Source: Escherichia coli (GTDB lineage Bacteria > Pseudomonadota > Gammaproteobacteria > Enterobacterales > Enterobacteriaceae). From it: DNA of 64,000 bases. Of this stretch, positions 21,797 to 64,000 are shown one piece after another. Both the position numbers and the translations under genes were made by a program. The notes under the pieces are model-generated. The model worked only from the letters and a program-made list of their open reading frames with translations, did no database searches and was not told the origin of the DNA. Where the stretch lies: the NCBI RefSeq assembly GCF_041886205.1, contig NZ_CP169029.1. One strand, given 5' to 3'. The number at the start of each line of letters is the position of its first letter. The stretch's first letter is position 1.

Positions 21797-21981
21797 AGTT
21801 GCTCATTCACCGACTTATGTCAGCCCCTTCGGGACGTGCTACATAAAATTCGAATGACGCACAACAAGGTGCCTGCCGTCCAACTTCTGATATCAGCGTA
21901 GCTATATCAACCATCGGGCGAAACGTCGAGTTAGGCACCGCCTTATTCCATAACAAAGCCGGGTAATTCCCGGCTTTGTTG
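21797..21981 (+). ncRNA. glmY: small regulatory RNA GlmY
   Basis: Sequence ...ctcattcaccgacttatgtcagccccttcgggacgtgctacataaaattcgaatgacgc... recognised as GlmY; ends in hairpin aaagccgggtaattcccggcttt plus U-tract; lies between purL and glrK; 5' end approximate. Confidence 0.75.
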
Positions 21982-28884: not shown

Positions 28885-28947
28885 GCGAAACGGTTAATCT
28901 GTTGAAAAAAGGCTTCCTTCGGGAAGCCTTTCTACGTTATCGCGCCA

Positions 28948-30141
28948 TCAAATCTGTCGTAACTGCGCCTCAACATACAAATAGCCAATTCCCAGCACCT
29001 GTTGTGCGCGGCTTAATTGCCCGAAGCCAATTTGCGTCGCTTTCACGCTCGGTCCTTCGTCGCGGTCGAACGGGTTAAATCCTGTCTGGCGAATAATAGT
29101 ATTAAGCCAGTTCTCACCAAAGGCACAACTGCGACCGTACAACCAAATCTGATTAATATTGAGGATGTTGAGGAAGTTATACAGACTCAAACCAATGGCA
29201 TTGGCAGAGCGATCAACCCAGCTGGTGATCCACGGTTCTCCACTCTGCCAGGCAGCGATTAACTGCGCGGTTGTCAGTTTTTCAGGATCAAGCTGAGTAT
29301 TAACCGGTTGTGATTTTAGCCATACCCGCGCCTGTTTTTTTAATGCACTTAACGAGGCGACGGTTTCCAGGCAGCCGTAACGTCCACAGTCGCAGACGAC
29401 GCCATCCGGATTAACGATGGTGTGACCAATCTGTCCGCTACCATACAAACTGCCGCGATAAATTTGCTCGTTAATCACGAACGACGAGCCAATGCCGTAA
29501 TCAACGTTGATCACGCAGAAATCCCGTTCCTGCGAATTATTTTGCCATTTCTCCGCCAGCGCCAGCATCACGCAGTCATTATCGACCATCACCCGAATGC
29601 CCAGCTTCTCTTCCAGCAGATACTTCACCTCAACCGGCGTTGTCCACGGCGCTTGCGGCATGGTTTGCGATACGCCGGTCACCGGATCAACCTGCCCGTG
29701 GATTGCCAGCGCCAGATTGATGGTGCGGCCCGGCCACAGTTTGCGATGACGATGCCAGCATTTTTCGATTTCGGACAGCAGCGCCTGCGGCGTCGGTGCA
29801 TCAATCTGTAAATACTCAAATTCACCTTTCGGACTTAAACAAGCATTAGCAACCTGACACTCAATACTGGTGGGCGTCACGTTCAGGCACAGCGTCCAGT
29901 CACCTTCCGGCGCAATCAGCCATGTACCGCTACTATGCCCGCGCGTCTGGCTTTCATCGTCAATATTCACCACCCGTTTTTCGCTTTCCAGTTCCTGCAA
30001 AATATTACTGACTGCCGGAATCGAAATTTGCGCCAGCCGGGCCAGCGTTGATTTATTGGCGCGCTTTTGCCGGTACAGCAGTTCCAGAATCACGCATTTG
30101 TTATGGTGGCGAATCTGTTGATTATTAATGCAGGCTCTCAT
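28948..30141 (-). CDS. yphH: ROK-family transcriptional regulator / sugar kinase-like protein
   Basis: Start refined to MRACINNQQIRHHNK (397 aa); N-terminal HTH, ROK fold with CxCGxxGC zinc motif. Confidence 0.8.
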   Translation of the reverse strand: MRACINNQQIRHHNKCVILELLYRQKRANKSTLARLAQISIPAVSNILQELESEKRVVNIDDESQTRGHSSGTWLIAPEGDWTLCLNVTPTSIECQVANACLSPKGEFEYLQIDAPTPQALLSEIEKCWHRHRKLWPGRTINLALAIHGQVDPVTGVSQTMPQAPWTTPVEVKYLLEEKLGIRVMVDNDCVMLALAEKWQNNSQERDFCVINVDYGIGSSFVINEQIYRGSLYGSGQIGHTIVNPDGVVCDCGRYGCLETVASLSALKKQARVWLKSQPVNTQLDPEKLTTAQLIAAWQSGEPWITSWVDRSANAIGLSLYNFLNILNINQIWLYGRSCAFGENWLNTIIRQTGFNPFDRDEGPSVKATQIGFGQLSRAQQVLGIGYLYVEAQLRQI

Positions 30142-30165
30142 CTTCACTAAACCTTGTTTAGTTAA

Positions 30166-31031
30166 TTGCGTGATTATTCCGCGAAAACATTGCCAGATTG
30201 TTCAATACACTGCCACAAATCTTTTAATTCAGTATGTCTTGTTAATATTGAGGGCACCATGACTCCAGTAAAAGTGTGGCAAGAGCGCGTTGAGATCCCG
30301 ACCTATGAAACCGGGCCGCAGGATATACATCCCATGTTCCTGGAAAATCGCGTTTATCAGGGATCGTCCGGCGCGGTTTATCCCTACGGCGTGACCGATA
30401 CGCTGAGCGAGCAGAAAACCCTGAAATCCTGGCAGGCGGTGTGGCTGGAAAACGACTACATCAAAGTGATGATCCTGCCGGAACTGGGCGGTCGGGTGCA
30501 TCGCGCGTGGGATAAAGTGAAACAGCGCGATTTTGTTTATCACAATGAAGTCATTAAACCTGCGCTGGTGGGGCTGCTGGGGCCGTGGATTTCCGGTGGG
30601 ATTGAGTTTAACTGGCCGCAACATCATCGCCCGACCACCTTTATGCCCGTTGATTTCACCCTCGAAGCCCATGAAGACGGTGCACAGACGGTGTGGGTAG
30701 GCGAAACGGAGCCGATGCATGGTTTACAGGTGATGACAGGTTTCACCCTGCGCCCTGACCGGGCGGCGCTGGAAATCGCCAGCCGCGTCTATAACGGGAA
30801 CGCCACGCCGCGTCATTTCTTGTGGTGGGCCAACCCGGCAGTGAAAGGGGGGGAAGGGCATCAGAGCGTCTTCCCGCCGGATGTAACGGCGGTTTTTGAT
30901 CACGGCAAACGGGCCGTCTCCGCTTTCCCCATCGCTACCGGCACTTACTACAAAGTGGACTACTCCGCTGGAGTGGACATTTCTCGCTATAAAAATGTGC
31001 CTGTTCCAACCTCATATATGGCCGAAAAATC
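30166..31031 (+). pseudogene. yphG: yphG 5' fragment (large TPR/DUF protein), truncated by IS1
   Basis: Reading frame opens at 30166 (TTG; an ATG with GAGGG RBS lies at about 30259) and is broken at the IS1 junction; the same frame resumes exactly after the IS1 target duplication. Confidence 0.8.
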
Positions 31032-31046
31032 GGTAATGACTCCAAC

Positions 31047-31550
31047 TTATTGATAGTGTTTTATGTTCAGATAATGCCCGATAACTTTGTCATGCAGCTC
31101 CACCGATTTTGAGAACGACAGTGACTTCCTGCCCAGCCTTGCCAGATGCTGCCTCAGATTCAGGTTATGCCGCTCAATGCGCTGCGTATATCGCTTGCTG
31201 ATAACGTGCAGTTCTCCCTTCAGGCGTGATTCATAAAGCGGCCAGCCATCCGTCATCCATACCACGACCTCAAAGGCCGACAGCAGGCCCAGAAGACGCT
31301 CCAGCGTCGCCATAGTGCGTTCACCGAATACGTGCGCAACAACCGTCTTCCGGAGCCTGTCATACGCGTAAAACAGCCAGCGCTGGCGCGATTTAGCCCC
31401 GACATAGCCCCACTGTTCGTCCATTTCCGCGCAGACGATGACGTCACTGCCCGGCTGTATGCGCGAGGTTACCGACTGCGGCCTGAGTTTTTTAAGTGAC
31501 GTAAAATCGTGTTGAGGCCAACGCCCATAATGCGGGCAGTTGCCCGGCAT
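31047..31550 (-). CDS. insB: IS1 InsB (transposase C-terminal ORF; InsAB' made by -1 frameshift)
   Basis: 167-aa [19 protein letters not shown]...KHYQ recognised as IS1 InsB. Confidence 0.9.
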
Positions 31551-31744
31551 CCAACGCCATTCATGGCCATATCAATGATTTTCTGGTGCGTACCGGGTTG
31601 AGAAGCGGTGTAAGTGAACTGCAGTTGCCATGTTTTACGGCAGTGAGAGCAGAGATAGCGCTGATGTCCGGCGGTGCTTTTGCCGTTACGTACCACCCCG
31701 TCAGTAGCTGAACAGGAGGGACAGCTGATAGAAACAGAAGCCAC
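31469..31744 (-). CDS. insA: IS1 InsA (transposition repressor)
   Basis: 91-aa [46 protein letters not shown] (zinc-finger-like), GTG start; A6C slippery site ttaaaaaac at its 3' end. Confidence 0.9.
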
Positions 31745-31799
31745 TGGAGCACCTCAAAAACACCATCATACACTAAATCAGTAAGTTGGCAGCATCACC

Positions 31800-34316
31800 G
31801 AAAAATCGCAGTACGATTTTGTCGGCGCGTGGTGTCACGATGAAGATGGCGGTTTGCTGCACGTTGCCAACCACCATATTGCGCCAGGTAAAAAACAGTG
31901 GAGTTGGGGACACAGTGAATTTGGCCAGGCGTGGGATAAGAGTCTGACCGACAATAACGGCCCGTATATCGAACTGATGACCGGTATTTTTGCCGATAAC
32001 CAGCCCGATTTTACCTGGCTTGATGCTTACGAAGAGAAGCGTTTTGAGCAGTATTTCCTGCCTTATCATTCTTTGGGCATGGTGCAAAATGCCTCCCGCG
32101 ATGCGGTGATAAAACTCCAGCGTAGTGAGCGGGGGATTGAGTGGGGGCTGTATGCCATCTCTCCGTTGAACGGATACCGCCTGGCGATCCGCGAAATCGG
32201 CAAATGCAACGCGTTACTTGATGATGCCGTGGCACTGATGCCTGCGACCGCCATCCAGGGCGTGTTGCACGGTATCAATCCTGAAAGGCTGACCATTGAG
32301 CTCTCCGATGCCGACGGCAATATTGTACTGAGTTATCAGGAACATCAGCCGCAAGAGTTGCCGTTGCCGGACGTCGCCAAAGCGCCACTGGCAGCACAAG
32401 ACATTACCAGTACAGATGAAGCCTGGTTTATCGGTCAGCATCTGGAGCAATATCATCACGCCAGCCGTTCACCGTTCGATTACTACCTGCGCGGCGTGGC
32501 GCTGGATCCGCTGGATTACCGCTGTAACCTGGCGCTAGCGATGCTGGAATATAACCGTGCCGATTTCCCGCAAGCGGTGGCGTATGCCACTCAGGCTCTG
32601 AAACGCGCACATGCGCTGAACAAAAATCCGCAGTGCGGACAGGCGAGTTTGATTCGCGCCAGTGCTTACGAACGTCAGGGACAATATCAACAAGCCGAAG
32701 AGGATTTCTGGCGGGCGGTCTGGAGCGGCAACAGCAAAGCCGGTGGCTATTATGGCCTGGCACGACTGGCTGCGCGTAATGGTAACTTCGACGCGGGTCT
32801 GGATTTTTGCCAACAAAGTCTTCGCGCCTGCCCAACCAATCAGGAAGTGCTTTGCCTGCATAACCTGCTGCTGGTGTTAAGTGGTCGTCAGGACAACGCG
32901 CGTTTGCAGCGCGAGAAACTGCTGCGCGATTATCCGCTGAACGCCACTCTGTGGTGGCTGAACTGGTTCGATGGTCGTAGCGAATCAGCCCTCGCGCAGT
33001 GGCGCGGTCTGTGTCAGGGACGCGACGTTAACGCTCTGATGACCGCCGGGCAACTGATTAACTGGGGAATGCCCACCCTGGCGGCAGAGATGCTGAACGC
33101 ACTGGACTGTCAGCGCACGTTATCGCTTTATCTACAAGCCAGCTTGCTGCCGAAAGCCGAACGCGGCGAACTGGTCGCAAAAGCCATTGATGTCTTCCCG
33201 CAGTTTGTCCGTTTCCCGAATACGCTGGAAGAAGTGGCGGCGCTGGAGAGTATTGAAGAGTGCTGGTTTGCTCGCCATTTACTGGCCTGCTTCTACTACA
33301 ACAAACGTAGCTACAACAAAGCCATTGCCTTATGGCAACGTTGCGTAGAGATGTCGCCGGAGTTTGCCGACGGCTGGCGCGGGTTAGCGATCCATGCGTG
33401 GAATAAGCAACACGATTATGAGCTGGCCGCGCGTTATCTTGATAATGCTTATCAGCTTGCGCCGCAGGATGCACGTCTGCTTTTCGAACGGGATTTGCTT
33501 GATAAGTTAAGTGGAGCCACACCGGAGAAACGACTGGCGCGTCTGGAAAATAATCTGGAAATTGCGCTGAAACGCGACGACATGACCGCAGAACTGCTCA
33601 ATTTGTGGCATCTCACGGGGCAGGCAGACAAAGCGGCGGACATTCTCGCCACGCGTAAATTCCACCCGTGGGAAGGCGGGGAAGGGAAGGTCACCAGTCA
33701 GTTTATCCTCAACCAGTTATTACGCGCCTGGCAGCATCTTGATGCCAGAGAGCCGCAGCAGGCCAGCGAACTGCTTCATGCCGCGCTGTATTATCCGGAG
33801 AATTTAAGCGAAGGCCGTTTACCGGGGCAAACTGATAACGACATCTGGTTCTGGCAGGCGATATGCGCCAACGCGCAGGGCGATGAAACTGAAGCGATGC
33901 GTTGTTTACGTCTGGCGGCGACCGGCGATCGCACCATTAACATCCACAGTTATTACAACGATCAGCCGGTTGATTATCTCTTCTGGCAAGGAATGGCGCT
34001 GCGACTGCTGGGTGAACAGCAAACCGCACAGCAACTGTTTAGTGAAATGAAACAGTGGGCGCAAGAGATGGCGAAAACCAGTATTGAGGCGGATTTCTTT
34101 GCTGTTTCACAACCTGACCTGTTGTCGCTGTATGGCGATTTACAACAGCAGCATAAAGAAAAATGCCTGATGGTGGCGATGCTGGCGTCCGCGGGACTCG
34201 GGGAGGTTGCGCAATATGAATCTGCTCGCGCTGAATTGACGGCGATTAATCCGGCCTGGCCGAAAGCGGCATTATTCACCACCGTGATGCCTTTTATTTT
34301 TAACTACGTTCACTAA
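31800..34316 (+). pseudogene. yphG: yphG 3' fragment (TPR-repeat region), downstream of IS1
   Basis: Frame continues from the target duplication to stop at 34316; removing IS1 plus one repeat copy restores a single 3375-bp ORF (1124 aa). Confidence 0.8.
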
Positions 34317-34412
34317 ACCCTATTAACTGTAATATTTGAGCGGCACGCGCTGCCGCTCATCACAAAATAATTAGAATAAGCCGTTGTTAATAAAAACCCT
34401 ACAGGAGGCACT

Positions 34413-35396
34413 ATGCCTAAAAAAATGAGAACAACCCGTAATCTATTATTAATGGCTACGCTATTAGGTAGCGCACTATTTGCCAGGGCTGCGGATAAAG
34501 AAATGACCATTGGTGCAATATACCTTGATACCCAGGGATATTACGCTGGAGTGCGTCAGGGCGTTCAGGATGCGGCAAAAGATTCTTCAGTACAGGTACA
34601 GTTAATTGAAACTAACGCCCAGGGTGATATTTCGAAAGAAAGTACCTTTGTTGATACCCTCGTGGCGCGTAATGTCGATGCCATTATTTTATCGGCAGTG
34701 TCTGAAAATGGCAGTAGCCGTACCGTTCGTCGCGCCAGTGAAGCGGGTATTCCGGTGATTTGCTACAACACCTGTATTAATCAAAAGGGTGTCGATAAAT
34801 ATGTCTCGGCGTATCTGGTCGGCGATCCACTGGAATTTGGTAAAAAACTGGGTAACGCTGCCGCCGATTATTTTATTGCCAATAAAATTGACCAGCCGAA
34901 AATTGCCGTCATCAATTGCGAAGCCTTTGAAGTTTGTGTGCAGCGACGTAAAGGATTTGAAGAAGTATTAAAATCCCGCGTTCCCGGCGCGCAAATTGTC
35001 GCTAATCAGGAAGGGACTGTTTTAGATAAAGCGATTTCCGTTGGTGAAAAACTGATTATCTCCACGCCGGATCTCAACGCCATTATGGGGGAGTCGGGCG
35101 GTGCGACACTCGGCGCGGTAAAAGCGGTACGTAATCAAAATCAGGCCGGAAAAATTGCTGTTTTCGGTTCGGATATGACAACCGAAATTGCTCAGGAGCT
35201 GGAAAACAATCAGGTGCTGAAAGCGGTAGTGGATATTTCCGGTAAGAAAATGGGCAATGCTGTTTTCGCGCAAACATTGAAGGTTATCAATAAACAAGCC
35301 GACGGTGAAAAAGTGATTCAGGTGCCAATCGATCTCTATACCAAAACGGAAGATGGTAAACAGTGGCTGGCAACGCACGTTGATGGTCTGCCCTAA
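34413..35396 (+). CDS. yphF: periplasmic sugar-binding protein of ABC transporter
   Basis: 327-aa ORF with signal peptide and type I periplasmic binding fold. Confidence 0.85.
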   Translation: MPKKMRTTRNLLLMATLLGSALFARAADKEMTIGAIYLDTQGYYAGVRQGVQDAAKDSSVQVQLIETNAQGDISKESTFVDTLVARNVDAIILSAVSENGSSRTVRRASEAGIPVICYNTCINQKGVDKYVSAYLVGDPLEFGKKLGNAAADYFIANKIDQPKIAVINCEAFEVCVQRRKGFEEVLKSRVPGAQIVANQEGTVLDKAISVGEKLIISTPDLNAIMGESGGATLGAVKAVRNQNQAGKIAVFGSDMTTEIAQELENNQVLKAVVDISGKKMGNAVFAQTLKVINKQADGEKVIQVPIDLYTKTEDGKQWLATHVDGLP

Positions 35397-35418
35397 TCGC
35401 TGATTCGCAGAGGTCCCT

Positions 35419-36930
35419 ATGTTCACGGCAACAGAGGCAGTCCCGGTAGCAAAAGTGGTGGCAGGAAATAAGCGTTATCCCGGCGTCGTTGCGTTGGATA
35501 ACGTTAACTTCACGCTCAATAAAGGCGAAGTTCGTGCGCTGTTAGGCAAAAACGGCGCGGGCAAATCGACCCTCATTCGAATGCTTACCGGTAGCGAACG
35601 TCCGGATAGCGGTGATATCTGGATTGGCGAGACGCGACTGGAAGGCGACGAAGCTACGCTGACTCGCCGTGCCGCTGAACTGGGGGTACGCGCGGTTTAT
35701 CAGGAGTTAAGTCTGGTGGAAGGGCTGACGGTGGCGGAAAACCTCTGCCTCGGTCAGTGGCCCCGCCGCAACGGCATGATTGATTACCTGCAAATGGCGC
35801 AGGATGCCCAACGTTGCTTACAGGCGTTGGGCGTTGACGTTAGTCCTGAACAACTTGTTTCAACACTAAGCCCGGCGCAAAAGCAGCTGGTGGAAATTGC
35901 GCGGGTGATGAAGGGCGAGCCGCGCGTGGTCATTCTTGATGAACCTACCAGTTCGCTTGCCAGTGCGGAAGTTGAACTGGTGATCAGCGCGGTGAAAAAG
36001 ATGTCGGCACTGGGCGTGGCGGTAATTTATGTCAGCCACCGGATGGAAGAAATTCGCCGCATTGCCTCCTGTGCCACCGTTATGCGCGATGGTCAGGTGG
36101 CGGGCGATGTGATGCTCGAAAACACCTCCACGCATCATATTGTGTCGCTGATGCTCGGGCGCGATCACGTTGATATTGCGCCGGTTGCCCCTCAGGAAAT
36201 TGTGGATCAGGCCGTACTGGAAGTCCGTGCGTTACGCCATAAGCCCAAGCTGGAGGATATCAGTTTTACGCTACGTCGTGGCGAAGTGCTCGGCATTGCT
36301 GGTCTGCTGGGGGCAGGGCGCAGTGAATTGCTGAAGGCGATTGTTGGGCTGGAGGAGTATGAACAGGGCGAAATTGTTATCAACGGCGAGAAAATCACGC
36401 GCCCCGATTACGGCGACATGCTGAAACGCGGCATTGGCTATACGCCAGAAAACCGCAAAGAAGCGGGGATCATTCCCTGGTTGGGCGTTGACGAAAATAC
36501 AGTGCTGACCAATCGGCAAAAAATCAGCGCCAACGGTGTGCTGCAATGGTCCACCATCCGCCGCCTGACCGAAGAAGTGATGCAGCGGATGACGGTCAAG
36601 GCCGCCAGTAGCGAAACGCCCATCGGCACGCTTTCTGGCGGCAATCAGCAAAAAGTAGTGATCGGTCGTTGGGTCTATGCCGCCAGCCAGATTTTGTTGC
36701 TCGACGAGCCAACGCGCGGCGTCGATATCGAAGCCAAACAGCAGATTTACCGTATTGTCCGTGAGCTGGCTGCCGAAGGAAAAAGTGTGGTGTTTATCTC
36801 CAGTGAAGTGGAGGAGTTGCCGCTGGTGTGTGACCGCATCCTGTTATTACAGCACGGCACGTTCTCGCAGGAGTTTCACTCGCCGGTCAATGTGGATGAG
36901 CTGATGTCCGCCATTCTGTCTGTGCACTGA
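35419..36930 (+). CDS. yphE: sugar ABC transporter ATP-binding protein (duplicated ABC domains)
   Basis: 503-aa ORF with two Walker A motifs (GKNGAGKST, GLLGAGRSEL) and signature LSGGNQQK. Confidence 0.85.
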   Translation: MFTATEAVPVAKVVAGNKRYPGVVALDNVNFTLNKGEVRALLGKNGAGKSTLIRMLTGSERPDSGDIWIGETRLEGDEATLTRRAAELGVRAVYQELSLVEGLTVAENLCLGQWPRRNGMIDYLQMAQDAQRCLQALGVDVSPEQLVSTLSPAQKQLVEIARVMKGEPRVVILDEPTSSLASAEVELVISAVKKMSALGVAVIYVSHRMEEIRRIASCATVMRDGQVAGDVMLENTSTHHIVSLMLGRDHVDIAPVAPQEIVDQAVLEVRALRHKPKLEDISFTLRRGEVLGIAGLLGAGRSELLKAIVGLEEYEQGEIVINGEKITRPDYGDMLKRGIGYTPENRKEAGIIPWLGVDENTVLTNRQKISANGVLQWSTIRRLTEEVMQRMTVKAASSETPIGTLSGGNQQKVVIGRWVYAASQILLLDEPTRGVDIEAKQQIYRIVRELAAEGKSVVFISSEVEELPLVCDRILLLQHGTFSQEFHSPVNVDELMSAILSVH

Positions 36931-36954
36931 TGAATTTTACCGAGGAACCTGAAG

Positions 36955-37953
36955 ATGTCTGCTTCGTCATTACCATTGCCGCAGGGCAAGAGCGTCTCGC
37001 TCAAACAATTTGTCAGTCGCCATATTAATGAGATCGGTTTGCTGGTGGTGATTGCCATTCTTTATCTGGTCTTCTCCCTGAACGCGCCTGGCTTTATCTC
37101 ATTGAATAACCAGATGAACGTGCTGCGCGATGCCGCCACCATTGGGATTGCCGCCTGGGCGATGACGCTGATTATTATCTCCGGTGAGATTGATGTCAGC
37201 GTTGGGCCGATGGTGGCTTTTGTCTCGGTGTGCCTGGCATTTTTGCTGCAATTTGAAGTTCCGCTGGCGGTGGCGTGCCTGCTGGTGTTGCTGTTAGGCG
37301 CGCTGATGGGAACGCTGGCCGGGGTGCTGCGCGGCGTGTTTAATGTACCAAGTTTCGTTGCCACACTGGGGCTGTGGAGCGCCCTGCGCGGAATGGGGCT
37401 GTTTATGACGAACGCACTGCCAGTGCCGATTGATGAAAACGAGGTGCTGGACTGGCTGGGCGGACAATTTCTCGGTGTGCCGGTATCCGCGCTGATCATG
37501 ATTGTGTTGTTTGCGCTGTTTGTGTTCATCAGCCGCAAAACCGCCTTCGGGCGCTCGGTTTTTGCCGTTGGCGGTAATGCTACGGCGGCGCAGTTGTGCG
37601 GCATCAACGTTCGTCGGGTGCGCATTCTTATCTTTACCCTTTCGGGATTATTAGCGGCGGTGACCGGCATTTTGTTGGCGGCGCGCCTCGGTTCTGGTAA
37701 CGCAGGTGCCGCAAACGGTCTGGAGTTTGACGTCATCGCCGCGGTCGTGGTCGGCGGTACGGCACTTTCCGGCGGTCGCGGTTCCCTGTTCGGTACATTG
37801 CTTGGTGTGCTGGTGATTACGCTAATCGGTAACGGTCTGGTGCTGCTCGGTATTAACTCCTTTTTCCAGCAGGTGGTACGCGGCGTCATCATCGTGGTGG
37901 CGGTGCTGGCGAATATCTTGCTGACCCAGCGAAGCAGTAAAGCGAAACGCTAA
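36955..37953 (+). CDS. yphD: sugar ABC transporter permease
   Basis: 332-aa polytopic membrane ORF. Confidence 0.85.
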   Translation: MSASSLPLPQGKSVSLKQFVSRHINEIGLLVVIAILYLVFSLNAPGFISLNNQMNVLRDAATIGIAAWAMTLIIISGEIDVSVGPMVAFVSVCLAFLLQFEVPLAVACLLVLLLGALMGTLAGVLRGVFNVPSFVATLGLWSALRGMGLFMTNALPVPIDENEVLDWLGGQFLGVPVSALIMIVLFALFVFISRKTAFGRSVFAVGGNATAAQLCGINVRRVRILIFTLSGLLAAVTGILLAARLGSGNAGAANGLEFDVIAAVVVGGTALSGGRGSLFGTLLGVLVITLIGNGLVLLGINSFFQQVVRGVIIVVAVLANILLTQRSSKAKR

Positions 37954-38018
37954 ACCTTAACGCCCCTGGCGCGGGTGCGGCAGGGATGAAAATTAATCGT
38001 ATTGTTAATGAGGGATTT

Positions 38019-39080
38019 ATGAAAACGATGCTGGCAGCTTATTTACCAGGAAATTCGACCGTCGATCTGCGGGAAGTTGCGGTGCCGACGCCGGGGATTA
38101 ACCAGGTACTGATCAAAATGAAATCCTCCGGGATTTGCGGAAGCGATGTCCACTATATCTATCATCAACACCGTGCCACAGCGGCGGCACCCGATAAACC
38201 GTTATACCAGGGCTTTATCAACGGTCATGAACCGTGCGGGCAGATTGTGGCGATGGGGCAAGGCTGCCGCCATTTTAAAGAGGGCGACCGCGTGCTGGTG
38301 TATCACATTTCTGGCTGTGGTTTTTGCCCGAACTGCCGCCGCGGCTTTCCTATCTCTTGTACTGGCAAAGGAAAAGCGGCTTACGGCTGGCAGCGTGACG
38401 GCGGTCATGCCGAATATCTGCTGGCGGAAGAAAAAGATCTGATCCTCCTGCCGGATGCGCTGAGCTACGAAGATGGTGCGTTTATCAGTTGCGGCGTTGG
38501 CACGGCCTATGAAGGGATTTTGCGCGGCGAAGTTTCCGGCAGCGATAACGTGCTGGTGGTCGGTCTGGGGCCGGTCGGCATGATGGCGATGATGCTGGCG
38601 AAAGGTCGCGGTGCAAAACGGATCATCGGCGTTGATATGCTGCCGGAACGTCTGGCGATGGCAAAACAGTTAGGGGTGATGGATCACGGCTATTTAGCAA
38701 CCACCGAAGGTCTGCCGCAGATTATCGCCGAACTCACCCACGGTGGCGCGGATGTTGCGCTCGATTGTTCTGGTAATGCCGCAGGTCGCTTGCTGGCACT
38801 GCAATCCACCGCTGACTGGGGACGGGTGGTTTACATTGGTGAAACCGGAAAAGTGGAATTCGAGGTCAGCGCCGATCTGATGCACCATCAACGGCGGATT
38901 ATCGGCTCCTGGGTGACCAGTCTGTTCCATATGGAAAAATGCGCCCATGATCTGACGGACTGGAAACTGTGGCCGCGTAACGCCATTACCCATCGCTTCA
39001 CGCTGGAACAGGCTGGAGATGCCTATGCGCTGATGGCGAGCGGCAAATGCGGGAAAGTTGTGATTAACTTCCCGGATTAA
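38019..39080 (+). CDS. yphC: zinc-dependent alcohol/polyol dehydrogenase (MDR family)
   Basis: Start refined to MKTMLAAYLPG (353 aa) with GAGGGA RBS; GICGSDVH catalytic zinc and GLGPVG NAD motifs. Confidence 0.8.
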   Translation: MKTMLAAYLPGNSTVDLREVAVPTPGINQVLIKMKSSGICGSDVHYIYHQHRATAAAPDKPLYQGFINGHEPCGQIVAMGQGCRHFKEGDRVLVYHISGCGFCPNCRRGFPISCTGKGKAAYGWQRDGGHAEYLLAEEKDLILLPDALSYEDGAFISCGVGTAYEGILRGEVSGSDNVLVVGLGPVGMMAMMLAKGRGAKRIIGVDMLPERLAMAKQLGVMDHGYLATTEGLPQIIAELTHGGADVALDCSGNAAGRLLALQSTADWGRVVYIGETGKVEFEVSADLMHHQRRIIGSWVTSLFHMEKCAHDLTDWKLWPRNAITHRFTLEQAGDAYALMASGKCGKVVINFPD

Positions 39081-39091
39081 GGAGTTAGCGG

Positions 39092-39964
39092 ATGACCATC
39101 TATACCTTATCCCACGGGTCGCTAAAGCTGGACGTTTCTGACCAGGGCGGCGTAATCGAAGGCTTCTGGCGCGATACGACGCCGCTCTTACGTCCTGGTA
39201 AAAAAAGCGGTGTGGCAACCGATGCCTCCTGTTTTCCGCTGGTGCCATTTGCAAACCGGGTGAGCGGCAACCGTTTTGTCTGGCAGGGGCGTGAGTATCA
39301 ACTGCAACCGAATGTTGAGTGGGATGCGCACTATCTACACGGCGATGGCTGGCTGGGCGAGTGGCAATGTGTCTCGCACAGCGATGATAGTTTGTGTCTG
39401 GTGTATGAACATCGCAGCGGTGTCTATCACTATCGGGTAAGTCAGGCGTTTCATTTAACGGCGGATACGCTGACGGTGACGCTCTCTGTCACCAATCAAG
39501 GGGCAGAGACGCTGCCATTTGGTACCGGCTGGCATCCTTATTTTCCGTTGTCACCACAAACGCGGATTCAGGCGCAGGCGAGCGGTTACTGGCTGGAACG
39601 GGAGCAGTGGCTGGCGGGTGAGTTTTGCGAGCAGCTACCGCAGGAACTGGATTTTAACCAGCTCGCGCCGTTGCCGCGCCAGTGGGTGAACAATGGTTTT
39701 GCCGGATGGAATGGTCAGGCCCGCATCGAGCAGCCGCAGGAAGGTTATGCCATCATCATGGAAACGACGCCACCTGCACCGTGTTATTTCATCTTTGTTT
39801 CCGACCCTGCGTTTGATAAAGGATATGCGTTTGATTTCTTCTGTCTGGAACCGATGAGCCATGCGCCGGATGATCATCATCGCCCGGAAGGGGGTGATCT
39901 CATTGCGCTAGCACCAGGGGAATCAACAACTTCAGAGATGTCGTTGCGGGTAGAGTGGCTGTAA
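39092..39964 (+). CDS. yphB: aldose 1-epimerase family protein
   Basis: 290-aa ORF, mutarotase-like fold. Confidence 0.75.
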   Translation: MTIYTLSHGSLKLDVSDQGGVIEGFWRDTTPLLRPGKKSGVATDASCFPLVPFANRVSGNRFVWQGREYQLQPNVEWDAHYLHGDGWLGEWQCVSHSDDSLCLVYEHRSGVYHYRVSQAFHLTADTLTVTLSVTNQGAETLPFGTGWHPYFPLSPQTRIQAQASGYWLEREQWLAGEFCEQLPQELDFNQLAPLPRQWVNNGFAGWNGQARIEQPQEGYAIIMETTPPAPCYFIFVSDPAFDKGYAFDFFCLEPMSHAPDDHHRPEGGDLIALAPGESTTSEMSLRVEWL

Positions 39965-51983: not shown

Positions 51984-52094
51984 TAAAAAGAATTCAGAAT
52001 CAGGCCGGGGCGTATCGCGCTCCGTAAACACGGTCGTACATCCAGCCGGTAGCCTGGTTCCTTGCATTGAGTGATGTACGGAGTTTATAGAGCA

Positions 52095-58574: not shown

Positions 58575-59351
58575 ATGTCCGAAACAAAAAATGAACTTGA
58601 AGACCTGCTGGAAAAAGCAGCAACCGAACCGGCGCACCGCCCGGCCTTTTTCCGTACTCTACTGGAATCCACCGTCTGGGTGCCTGGTACGGCGGCGCGG
58701 GGCGAGGCGGTGGTTGAAGATAGCGCGCTTGATTTACAGCACTGGGAAAAAGAAGACGGCACCAGCGTCATTCCTTTTTTTACCTCGTTAGAAGCACTTC
58801 AACAGGCAGTTGAAGACGAACAGGCATTTGTCGTAATGCCCGTTCGCACATTGTTTGAGATGACCCTTGGCGAAACGCTCTTCCTTAATGCCAAACTGCC
58901 AACCGGTAAAGAGTTTATGCCGCGTGAAATCAGTTTGTTGATTGGTGAAGAAGGGAATCCGCTGAGTAGCCAGGAAGTACTGGAAGGCGGTGAATCGCTG
59001 ATATTATCGGAAGTCGCAGAGCCGCCAGCACAAATGATTGATTCACTCACCACCTTATTTAAAACCATTAAGCCAGTGAAGCGTGCTTTTATATGTTCAA
59101 TTAAAGAGAACGAAGAGGCACAGCCTAATTTACTTATTGGCATTGAAGCCGATGGTGATATCGAAGAAATTATTCAGGCGGCGGGAAGTGTAGCGACCGA
59201 TACATTACCTGGCGATGAACCAATCGATATTTGTCAGGTGAAAAAAGGGGAAAAAGGAATTAGCCACTTTATTACCGAACATATTGCGCCATTCTATGAA
59301 CGTCGTTGGGGTGGTTTTTTGCGTGACTTTAAACAGAACCGGATAATCTAA
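58575..59351 (+). CDS. sseB: protein SseB (enhances serine sensitivity)
   Basis: Start refined to MSETKNELEDLLEKA (258 aa). Confidence 0.85.
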   Translation: MSETKNELEDLLEKAATEPAHRPAFFRTLLESTVWVPGTAARGEAVVEDSALDLQHWEKEDGTSVIPFFTSLEALQQAVEDEQAFVVMPVRTLFEMTLGETLFLNAKLPTGKEFMPREISLLIGEEGNPLSSQEVLEGGESLILSEVAEPPAQMIDSLTTLFKTIKPVKRAFICSIKENEEAQPNLLIGIEADGDIEEIIQAAGSVATDTLPGDEPIDICQVKKGEKGISHFITEHIAPFYERRWGGFLRDFKQNRII

Positions 59352-59800
59352 AATATGCCGCCCCAAAGGGCGGCATTCGGGCTTACCTGCTGTTCTGAAG
59401 GTTGTTAACCACCAGTAAATTGTTGCCGGAGAGACTCAGGTTATTATTTACCTCGGTTAACAGCGCACCAGAAACAATAAGTACGATACAAAAGCACCGT
59501 ATCTTCATTGTGCGGTCCATGCGAAGACCGCATCACGACAGCACCACTGGCGATATTGCCGCGATAGCAAGCGCTGTGAAACACCTGCATTTACGGCCAC
59601 GGAACATCCTTTCCTAAAGCCAGCGCCCGTTTGCGAGACGGCGGAAAGGGCCGGTGTCGATAATACGCTAAATAAACAATAATTACTCTCTTTTGCTTGA
59701 CAAAAAGAGAGTTGCTGGCGAATATTGCTCTGCTGTGAAGCACCTGCGTTGCTCATGCAACACAAGTCAACCTGCTGGAAAGGCCGCGAACCAGACCAGC
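59352..59800. ncRNA. ryfA: putative sRNA locus (position consistent with ryfA) in the sseB-sseA convergent spacer
   Basis: 500-bp gap between convergent genes, bounded by hairpin terminators on both sides and containing promoter-like hexamers; I recall ryfA being annotated between sseA and sseB but cannot verify strand or ends from sequence. Confidence 0.35.
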
Positions 59801-60899: not shown

Positions 60900-63800
60900 A
60901 TGAAAAAGTTACGCGTAGCCGCCTGCATGCTAATGCTGGCGCTGGCAGGGTGCGACAACAACGATAACGCGCCAACAGCGGTGAAAAAAGATGCGCCTTC
61001 TGAAGTTACTAAAGCTGCCTCTTCAGAAAACGCGAGTTCAGCAAAACTCTCCGTGCCGGAGCGACAAAAACTGGCCCAACAGAGTGCCGGTAAGGTGCTG
61101 ACATTGCTGGATCTCTCTGAAGTCCAACTTGATGGTGCAGCCACGCTGGTGCTGACGTTCTCCATCCCTCTCGACCCGGATCAGGATTTCTCACGCGTTA
61201 TTCATGTCGTCGATAAAAAAAGCGGCAAAGTGGATGGTGCCTGGGAGCTGTCAGATAATCTTAAAGAGCTGCGTTTACGCCACCTCGAACCGAAACGTGA
61301 TTTGATCGTTACTATTGGCAAGGAGGTCAAAGCACTCAACAACACAACCTTCAGTAAAGATTACGAAAAAACTATAACTACCCGCGACATCCAACCCAGC
61401 GTCGGTTTTGCCAGCCGTGGTTCGCTGCTGCCTGGTAAAGTCGTTGAAGGGCTGCCGGTAATGGCGCTCAACGTTAATAATGTCGATGTTAACTTCTTCC
61501 GCGTTAAGCCAGAATCTCTGCCAGCATTCATTAGCCAATGGGAATACCGCAATTCGCTGGCGAACTGGCAGTCAGACAAACTGCTGCAGATGGCGGATCT
61601 GGTCTACACCGGACGGTTTGATCTCAATCCTGCGCGTAACACCCGTGAAAAATTATTGCTGCCGCTGGGCGATATCAAACCGCTTCAGCAGGCGGGCGTG
61701 TATCTGGCTGTGATGAATCAGGCTGGACGTTACGATTACAGTAATCCCGCGACGCTGTTTACGTTAAGTGATATCGGCGTTTCAGCTCACCGTTATCACA
61801 ATCGTCTGGATATCTTTACCCAAAGTCTGGAAAACGGCGCGGCCCAGCAAGGAATTGAAGTCTCTTTATTAAATGAGAAAGGGCAGATTCTGACTCAGGC
61901 AACCAGTGACGCTCAGGGGCATGTGCAGCTGGAAAATGATAAAAACGCCGCATTATTGCTGGCACGTAAAGACGGTCAGACAACGCTACTCGATTTAAAA
62001 CTTCCGGCGCTGGACTTAGCAGAATTTAACATTGCTGGCGCGCCAGGCTATAGCAAACAGTTTTTCATGTTTGGCCCGCGCGATCTTTATCGCCCAGGTG
62101 AAACGGTCATCCTCAATGGTTTGCTGCGTGATGCAGACGGTAAAGCGTTGCCCGATCAACCCATCAAGTTAGACGTGATTAAACCCGACGGGCAGGTACT
62201 CAGGAGCGTCGTTAGTCAGCCGGAGAATGGCCTCTACCACTTAACCTGGCCACTCGATAGCAATGCGGCAACCGGTATGTGGCATATTCGCGCTAACACG
62301 GGCGATAACCAGTATCGGATGTGGGATTTCCACGTCGAAGATTTTATGCCAGAGCGTATGGCGCTGAATCTGACCGGTGAGAAAACCCCGCTTACGCCGA
62401 ATGATGAAGTGAAATTCTCCGTGGTGGGATACTACCTGTACGGTGCGCCTGCTAATGGTAATACTTTGCAAGGGCAACTTTTCCTGCGCCCACTGCGTGA
62501 GGCTGTGTCAGCCTTACCTGGTTTTGAATTCGGCGATATAGCTGCTGAAAACCTTTCCCGCACTCTGGATGAAGTTCAGTTGACGCTGGATGATAAAGGG
62601 CGCGGCGAAGTTTCTACAGAAAGCCAGTGGAAGGAAACGCATTCCCCATTACAGGTTATTTTCCAGGGCAGTTTGCTGGAATCGGGCGGTCGCCCGGTGA
62701 CGCGCCGCGCTGAGCAGGCTATCTGGCCTGTCGATGCATTGCCGGGGATCCGTCCGCAGTTCGCCTCGAAATCGGTTTACGATTATCGTACTGACAGCAC
62801 GGTGAAACAGCCCATTGTTGATGAAGGCAGTAACGCCGCTTTTGACATCGTTTATAGCGATGCGCAAGGCGTGAAAAAAGCCGTGTCGGGCTTGCAGGTG
62901 CGCCTGATTCGCGAACGCCGCGATTACTACTGGAACTGGTCAGAAGATGAAGGCTGGCAGTCACAGTTTGATCAAAAAGATCTGATCGAAAATGAACAAA
63001 CTCTGGATCTTCAGGCGGATGAAACCGGTAAGGTCAGTTTCCCGGTAGAGTGGGGCGCTTATCGTCTGGAAGTCAAAGCGCCGAATGAAGCGGTCAGTAG
63101 CGTGCGTTTCTGGGCTGGCTATAGCTGGCAGGACAACAGCGACGGGAGCGGTACCGTGCGACCCGACCGTGTCACGCTGAAACTGGATAAAGCCAGTTAT
63201 CGCCCTGGCGATACCATTAAGTTGCATATTGCCGCGCCAACGGCGGGTAAAGGTTATGCGATGGTCGAATCCAGTGAAGGGCCGCTGTGGTGGCAAGAGA
63301 TTGATGTTCCGGCTCAAGGGTTGGATCTGACGATTCCGGTCGATAAAACCTGGAATCGTCATGATCTTTATTTGAGTACGCTGGTGGTGCGTCCTGGCGA
63401 TAAATCTCGCTCCGCGACGCCAAAACGCGCGGTTGGTGTGTTGCATCTGCCGCTTGGTGATGAAAACCGTCGCCTCGATCTGGCGCTGGAAACACCAGCA
63501 AAAATGCGTCCCAATCAACCATTAACCGTGAAAATTAAAGCCAGCACTAAAAATGGTGAGATGCCAAAACAGGTGAATGTGCTGGTGTCTGCCGTTGATA
63601 GTGGTGTGCTGAATATTACTGACTACGTCACGCCAGATCCGTGGCAGGCGTTCTTTGGTCAGAAACGCTATGGCGCAGACATTTACGATATTTACGGTCA
63701 GGTTATTGAAGGTCAGGGGCGTCTGGCAGCTCTGCGTTTCGGTGGCGATGGTGATGAGCTGAAACGTGGTGGTAAACCGCCGGTCAATCACGTCAATATT

Positions 63801-64000
63801 GTCGCGCAGCAGGCGCTGCCGGTAACGCTCAACGAACAGGGCGAAGGCTCGGTTACACTGCCGATTGGCGATTTTAACGGTGAATTGCGCGTCATGGCGC
63901 AAGCCTGGACGGCAGATGACTTCGGTAGCAACGAAAGTAAAGTGATAGTTGCCGCACCGGTGATTGCTGAACTGAACATGCCGCGCTTTATGGCGAGTGG
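60900..64000 (+). CDS. yfhM: alpha-2-macroglobulin family lipoprotein, N-terminal about 1030 codons (3' end beyond window)
   Basis: Open frame from ATG 60900 to window end with no stop (hence absent from ORF track); lipoprotein signal MKKLRVAACMLMLALAGC; divergent from sseA. Confidence 0.85.
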   Translation, partial: MKKLRVAACMLMLALAGCDNNDNAPTAVKKDAPSEVTKAASSENASSAKLSVPERQKLAQQSAGKVLTLLDLSEVQLDGAATLVLTFSIPLDPDQDFSRVIHVVDKKSGKVDGAWELSDNLKELRLRHLEPKRDLIVTIGKEVKALNNTTFSKDYEKTITTRDIQPSVGFASRGSLLPGKVVEGLPVMALNVNNVDVNFFRVKPESLPAFISQWEYRNSLANWQSDKLLQMADLVYTGRFDLNPARNTREKLLLPLGDIKPLQQAGVYLAVMNQAGRYDYSNPATLFTLSDIGVSAHRYHNRLDIFTQSLENGAAQQGIEVSLLNEKGQILTQATSDAQGHVQLENDKNAALLLARKDGQTTLLDLKLPALDLAEFNIAGAPGYSKQFFMFGPRDLYRPGETVILNGLLRDADGKALPDQPIKLDVIKPDGQVLRSVVSQPENGLYHLTWPLDSNAATGMWHIRANTGDNQYRMWDFHVEDFMPERMALNLTGEKTPLTPNDEVKFSVVGYYLYGAPANGNTLQGQLFLRPLREAVSALPGFEFGDIAAENLSRTLDEVQLTLDDKGRGEVSTESQWKETHSPLQVIFQGSLLESGGRPVTRRAEQAIWPVDALPGIRPQFASKSVYDYRTDSTVKQPIVDEGSNAAFDIVYSDAQGVKKAVSGLQVRLIRERRDYYWNWSEDEGWQSQFDQKDLIENEQTLDLQADETGKVSFPVEWGAYRLEVKAPNEAVSSVRFWAGYSWQDNSDGSGTVRPDRVTLKLDKASYRPGDTIKLHIAAPTAGKGYAMVESSEGPLWWQEIDVPAQGLDLTIPVDKTWNRHDLYLSTLVVRPGDKSRSATPKRAVGVLHLPLGDENRRLDLALETPAKMRPNQPLTVKIKASTKNGEMPKQVNVLVSAVDSGVLNITDYVTPDPWQAFFGQKRYGADIYDIYGQVIEGQGRLAALRFGGDGDELKRGGKPPVNHVNIVAQQALPVTLNEQGEGSVTLPIGDFNGELRVMAQAWTADDFGSNESKVIVAAPVIAELNMPRFMAS

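Follow-up and report, generated by a model that had tools for sequence, protein, structure and literature searches.

A recent IS1 insertion interrupts yphG in a strain of Escherichia coli

A 64-kb stretch of the Escherichia coli contig NZ_CP169029.1, referred to below as the window, carries a complete copy of the insertion sequence IS1 within yphG, a gene encoding a protein with a DUF5107 domain and a tetratricopeptide repeat (TPR) region. We conclude with high confidence that the element entered codon 258 in a recent and simple insertion, by which yphG would be inactivated and the genes downstream would probably be subject to polarity. The insertion is real, recent, private to its lineage and simple, and the evidence is directly observed: a complete element flanked by a perfect duplication, a gene that is cleanly restored once the element is removed, an empty site in the closest relatives, and a junction that is exceedingly rare elsewhere. 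A first-pass annotation had proposed a recent transposition into an otherwise intact gene, and the gap-free, collinear restoration, the identical repeats and the empty site in relatives bear this out.

In the mechanism that we favor, the DDE transposase InsAB', made by a -1 frameshift at the A6C slippery site, would have moved IS1 into the gene at codon 258 not long ago in the line leading to the strain, and a staggered cut of the target followed by gap repair would have generated an 8-bp duplication. With DUF5107 (residues 39-324) split and only a 264-aa stub made from the native start, YphG would be inactivated, and polarity would lower the expression of the downstream YphF/E/D transporter, the YphC dehydrogenase and the YphB epimerase.

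The element and the interrupted gene

The IS1 copy is complete and is transcribed from the minus strand, opposite to yphG. On the plus strand it starts with GGTAATGACTCC and ends with GGCAGCATCACC, and it is therefore reversed relative to yphG. The parts of the element, its flanking repeats and the two fragments of the gene are listed here in window coordinates.

31032..31799, minus strand: IS1, 768 bp, 97.0% identity to K-12 IS1A and 91.4% to IS1F
31032..31054, minus strand: right inverted repeat of IS1 (IRR; left end on the plus strand), 18 of 23 positions matching the other end
31777..31799, minus strand: left inverted repeat of IS1 (IRL), an imperfect terminal repeat with 18 of 23 positions matching
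31792..31765, minus strand: promoter-like site CTGCCA-16-TATGAT, overlapping IRL (consensus scan)
31744..31469, minus strand: insA, 91 aa, GTG start, intact; repressor and N-terminal part of the transposase
31550..31047, minus strand: insB frame, 167 aa, intact; expressed only as the InsAB' fusion
31487-31493, minus strand: A6C slippery heptamer AAAAAAC, IS positions 307-313, site of the programmed -1 frameshift
31024-31031: target-site duplication GAAAAATC, left copy, 8 bp, perfect repeat
31800-31807: target-site duplication GAAAAATC, right copy, 8 bp, perfect repeat
30259..31031, plus strand: yphG 5' fragment, codons 1-258 (RefSeq ATG start); the older K-12 start is TTG 30166
31808..34316, plus strand: yphG 3' fragment, codons 259-1093 and stop, carrying the remainder of DUF5107 as well as the TPR region

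As evidenced by the computed translation, a -1 shift at A6C yields a 232-aa InsAB' without a stop. This product matches the NCBIfam model NF033558, 'IS1 family transposase', with 246.7 bits (cutoff 100), as well as the model NF050000 for the N-terminal Zn-binding domain, and PF03400 (DDE_Tnp_IS1) is on record for an InsB identical to that of the window copy. In its length, inverted repeats, arrangement of insA, insB and A6C, transposase model and 8-bp target duplication the copy has the characteristics of the IS1 family, and the first-pass call of a complete 768-bp element with both inverted repeats, intact insA and insB and an A6C site agrees with coordinates, reading frames and model score alike. 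The published description of IS1 comprises a length of 768 bp, the repeats IRL and IRR, insA and insB, a programmed -1 frameshift mechanism at A6C that gives rise to the 232-aa InsAB', a duplication of 8 or 9 bp, and a promoter, PIS1, that overlaps IRL (PMC12428005). The only promoter-like site that a consensus scan revealed in the region 29900-34600 is situated on the minus strand inside IRL, where PIS1 is described. The K-12 copies IS1A and IS1E, which stand for the consensus IS1, share with the window copy the 768 bp, the termini GGTGATGCTGCC...GGAGTCATTACC, the layout of insA, insB' and A6C, an InsA of identical length and an InsAB' of 232 aa. Judged by its intactness and by an insertion that looks fresh, the window copy appears functional; it may have been mobilised in trans by another IS1 copy.

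On both sides the element is bordered by GAAAAATC in perfect direct repeat, and 8 bp would agree by chance at precisely this pair of flank positions in about 1 of 65,000 cases. Counting a ninth duplicated base, a left-hand C or a right-hand G, requires that the terminal base of IS1 be borrowed; with an IS1 of 768 bp the duplication is therefore 8 bp long, a length within the published range. The length of 8-9 bp originally suggested, gaaaaatc(g), thus stands as far as the perfect repeat is concerned and is to be read as 8 bp with an ambiguous ninth base; non-identity of the flanking repeats, named at the time as grounds for refutation, is excluded.

Removal of IS1 together with one copy of the repeat leaves a single open frame of 3375 bp that runs from TTG 30166 to a single terminal stop. 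The first-pass annotation had described this frame as a protein of 1124 aa, and while the continuous frame is confirmed, that length corresponds to the old TTG call and is the one formerly assigned to K-12 yphG (b2549). RefSeq now calls yphG with 1093 aa from ATG, both in K-12 and in every relative that was inspected, and the restored gene, read from ATG 30259, likewise has 3282 bp and 1093 aa. Its product matches PF17128 (DUF5107) at residues 39-324 with E = 3.1e-55, followed by TPR_16 at residues 499-560 and 754-813. IS1 is placed after codon 258, within DUF5107, and both halves of the gene are free of further lesions. The interrupted frame enters the element by 22 bp, adds the residues VMTPTY and stops at 31051-31053, resulting in a product of 264 aa; beyond IS1, the first in-frame start of the 3' fragment is TTG 31854, from which 820 aa can be read. 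With DUF5107 split and the 264-aa stub as the only product from the native start, the function of YphG is predicted to be lost.

The restored gene is collinear with b2549, lies between yphH and yphF as in K-12, agrees with it in its Pfam matches to DUF5107 and TPR and is 98.8% identical over the region, but the K-12 gene is uninterrupted, whereas the copy in the window is broken after codon 258. Among intact alleles, those of the strains LHM10-1, CP52E, 6EVA and VE-T9 are closest, rather than that of K-12.

The empty site and the junction in other genomes

With a 400-bp probe covering the left junction, no spanning match was obtained in any of the 5,426 complete E. coli assemblies, and the junction was also absent from the 100,044 species-representative genomes searched. 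The uninterrupted site was detected with a 600-bp probe in 5,420 of the 5,426 complete genomes, in a search that, for a probe of this length, merges partial matches separated by as much as 800 bp and could thus hide an IS1. A second probe of 109 bp is too short to bridge the element, and with counts limited to genomes detectable by megablast the site was uninterrupted in all 4,069 of these, with no split matches. As judged by the 600-bp probe, about 99.9% of E. coli genomes have kept yphG. In K-12 MG1655 and in the four strains with the closest alleles, the site contains GAAAAATC once and yphG is intact, with 3282 bp. The first-pass annotation had taken the insertion to be probably strain-specific and absent from K-12, which holds, and had asked for an alignment to see whether the empty site is the common state, which it is.

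The relatives in question are very close. Over 20 kb of the right flank the identity to LHM10-1, CP52E, 6EVA and VE-T9 is about 100%, and a restored segment of 24.4 kb aligns with CP52E, 6EVA and VE-T9 without gaps and with 6-12 mismatches, corresponding to 99.95-99.97% identity. LHM10-1 is contiguous across the flanks at 99.96% and differs from the window at two positions in yphG. As the site is empty in such close relatives, the insertion postdates the split from them. An origin of the window in the IS1-rich Shigella was considered and dropped, since the 64 kb contain just one IS and the four genomes of about 99.96% identity belong to ordinary E. coli. Over the entire comparison the window and LHM10-1 differ at 55 positions, about 24 of them scattered over 62 kb outside a cluster in yfhM. 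Note that this cluster, in the gene for an alpha2-macroglobulin (window 62078-63938), holds 31 of the 55 differences within 1.9 kb and looks like a short recombination tract.

These data bear on the question of whether the insertion might be old, common to a lineage or to numerous strains, with yphG a long-standing pseudogene. Shared insertions do exist in general, as IS1 is carried by 4,970 of the 5,426 complete E. coli genomes, but for this site we found no specific support, and we consider an ancestral origin to be of negligible probability. None of the 5,426 genomes carries the junction, which excludes the presence of the same IS1 in most reference genomes that had been named as a potential refutation, and four relatives of at least 99.95% identity retain the empty site. 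The identical repeat copies, the undamaged halves of the gene and the fully intact IS1 likewise argue against an old event.

A larger rearrangement was considered as well. IS1 causes adjacent deletions and inversions, and the observed copy might mark a deletion next to it, an inversion between two copies of the element or the end of a composite transposon. Aside from this known capacity of the element, nothing points in that direction: the flanks are exactly contiguous in the relatives, nothing was lost or inverted, the target duplication is present, and the 64-kb window contains no second IS1. We therefore regard a rearrangement as vanishingly improbable.

Independent reads of the junctions come from a single sequencing run. 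In an index of 153 billion genes, the 264-aa truncated product and the 820-aa C-terminal frame each have one exact occurrence, both in the Logan assembly of SRR28800585, while a look-up of the 779-aa C-terminal fragment with an ATG start gave no match. Two contigs of this run are contained without any difference in the window, at 29719-31061 and at 31771-36982, and break off about 30 bp inside IS1, such that the short-read contigs reproduce both junctions base for base; SRR28800585 is the sole carrier run found and derives either from the strain of the window itself or from one of its clones. The breaks of these Logan contigs illustrate a general concern, namely that multicopy IS1 often breaks or confuses assemblies, and that a repeat copy could have been misplaced by the assembler. 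We nevertheless find an artefact of this kind extremely unlikely. A perfect 8-bp target duplication is a signature of transposition and not of misassembly, and both junctions are present in the unitigs of SRR28800585, though the run is possibly the source strain's own data.

The inserted isoform

In comparison to K-12 IS1A the window copy has 23 substitutions, 21 of which fall into the insB part, at IS positions 444-717, and only two into the first 440 bp. Because the differences cluster in the insB half, the sequence suggests a mosaic of IS1 isoforms that is IS1A-like overall. A greater distance from IS1A, with an identity of about 92%, was rejected, as this value refers only to the divergent 3' part and the full-length identity is 97.0%.

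No identical copy of the element exists in the 5,426 complete E. coli genomes, where the best match reaches 99.2%, or among the plasmids of PLSDB, with a best match of 98.9%. The nearest copies, which are located on four short contigs of draft-assembly or metagenome origin, differ only at IS position 109, an A in the window copy and a G in the others, a synonymous change in the third position of insA codon 18. An InsB identical to that of the window copy was found only on 8 short contigs, and the exact 232-aa InsAB' is absent from the protein collection searched.

Strain LHM10-1, the closest relative, has an IS1 of its own (L002 12772-13539), of another isoform with 94.8% identity to the window copy. 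It resides between acpS and shoB/ohsC, at a site corresponding to window 12696-12709 that is empty in the window. Each of the two near-identical strains thus has a private IS1, since each site is empty in the other.

The yph array and the consequence of the insertion

On the plus strand, yphG heads a co-directional array in the order yphG-F-E-D-C-B, with gaps of 97, 22, 24, 32 and 11 bp, and the divergent gene yphH precedes it. Its neighbors are the following.

28948..30141, minus strand: yphH, gene for a ROK-family regulator, intact, divergent from yphG
34413-35396, plus strand: yphF, intact, K-12 length
35419-36930, plus strand: yphE, intact, K-12 length
36955-37953, plus strand: yphD, intact, K-12 length
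37986-39080, plus strand: yphC, intact, K-12 length
39092-39964, plus strand: yphB, intact, K-12 length

Next to yphH, in the intergenic region with glyA (window 28894-28909), the sequence of K-12 MG1655 is longer by about 134 bp, possibly owing to an intergenic element of the repetitive extragenic palindromic (REP) type that is absent from the window lineage. Farther away, Rfam matches to AsrC, rncO, ohsC, GlmY, iscRS and ryfA are found at the positions expected for E. coli, with nothing unusual about them (regions, in the order reported: 5290-6121, 8905-9119, 12532-12596, 21797-21944, 51984-52093 and 59350-59654).

YphF, YphE and YphD resemble a sugar ATP-binding cassette (ABC) transporter of the CUT2 type, YphC a Zn-dependent dehydrogenase and YphB an aldose 1-epimerase. 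The designation as a sugar-utilisation cluster in the first-pass annotation is a reasonable guess, with the restriction that none of the downstream yph proteins scores high enough to reach the cutoff curated for a substrate-specific family. The same annotation had IS1 inactivating the last gene of the cluster. Interruption of yphG is evident, but the gene is last only in the alphabet; it is the first and promoter-proximal one of six, and the likely consequence is therefore larger than the loss of a single gene.

IS1 insertions are strongly polar in both orientations, a classical result from insertion mutants in gal and lac. In those mutants the element likewise resides in a promoter-proximal gene, with translation ending just inside it. 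As yphG is promoter-proximal and its translation stops 22 bp into the element, IS1 is by analogy probably polar on yphF to yphB and would lower their expression. Polarity is known for the classical mutants, whereas for the window we infer it from gene order, spacing and the consensus scan, which predicted no outward sigma-70-like promoter at the right IS1 junction.

Several points limit the favored explanation as a whole. The scan of 29900-34600 found a promoter neither for yphG nor for yphF and is uninformative on both, and an internal promoter that it missed could be located in the 97-bp gap between the two genes. The literature searched contained no functional study of E. coli yphG, of DUF5107 or of the other yph genes, and the sole solved DUF5107 homologue, 5cd6, is a structural-genomics entry. 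With the window copy being the only IS1 in the 64 kb, the donor cannot be named from the window either, and the isoform comparison proposed at the outset for this purpose succeeded in placing the isoform, at 97.0% identity to IS1A and mosaic, but did not name the donor. The yphG stop codon is closely followed, at window 34337-34357, by a G+C-rich hairpin, GAGCGGCA-CGCG-CTGCCGCTC, which has no T-run after it and is not a canonical terminator.

A further question is whether the insertion was adaptive or regulatory, in that loss of yph function was selected, or that the downstream genes were freed from YphH by an IS-derived or hybrid promoter. Hybrid promoters can form at IS1 ends, and the cluster was hit twice within the clade, as yphD is independently frameshifted in two of the four closest relatives, LHM10-1 and CP52E. 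A pair of events does not suffice to show selection, however, the right junction shows no predicted outward promoter-like site, and the species at large retains yphG almost without exception. An adaptive or regulatory role of the insertion is thus very unlikely. As to the second lesion itself, the frameshift is a +T (window 37328) common to LHM10-1 and CP52E, where yphD is annotated as a pseudogene (L003 22-1021 and L013 7648-8647), while the gene is intact in the window, in 6EVA and in VE-T9. The two independent lesions are compatible with relaxed or negative selection. That the yph cluster is under such selection in this narrow clade, and that IS1 represents a selected loss-of-function or rewiring event, is a proposal to which we give little credence; if it were true, it would provide a handle on the substrate of YphG and the YphFED system.

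The preferred reading of a recent and simple insertion describes a known element behaving as known. It is a routine, strain-specific mutation that holds no new biology, and its import goes little beyond strain bookkeeping, with a possible use of the insertion as a strain marker. For annotation, yphG should in this strain be recorded as a pseudogene interrupted by IS1. With respect to IS1 itself, the case indicates that a mosaic, non-consensus, IS1A-like isoform moved recently, presumably in nature, although the event may have taken place in culture. The cluster that it hit is almost universally conserved in E. coli and uncharacterised, and the strain offers a clean natural knockout of yphG, probably polar, as a ready-made mutant for any functional study of the yph genes.

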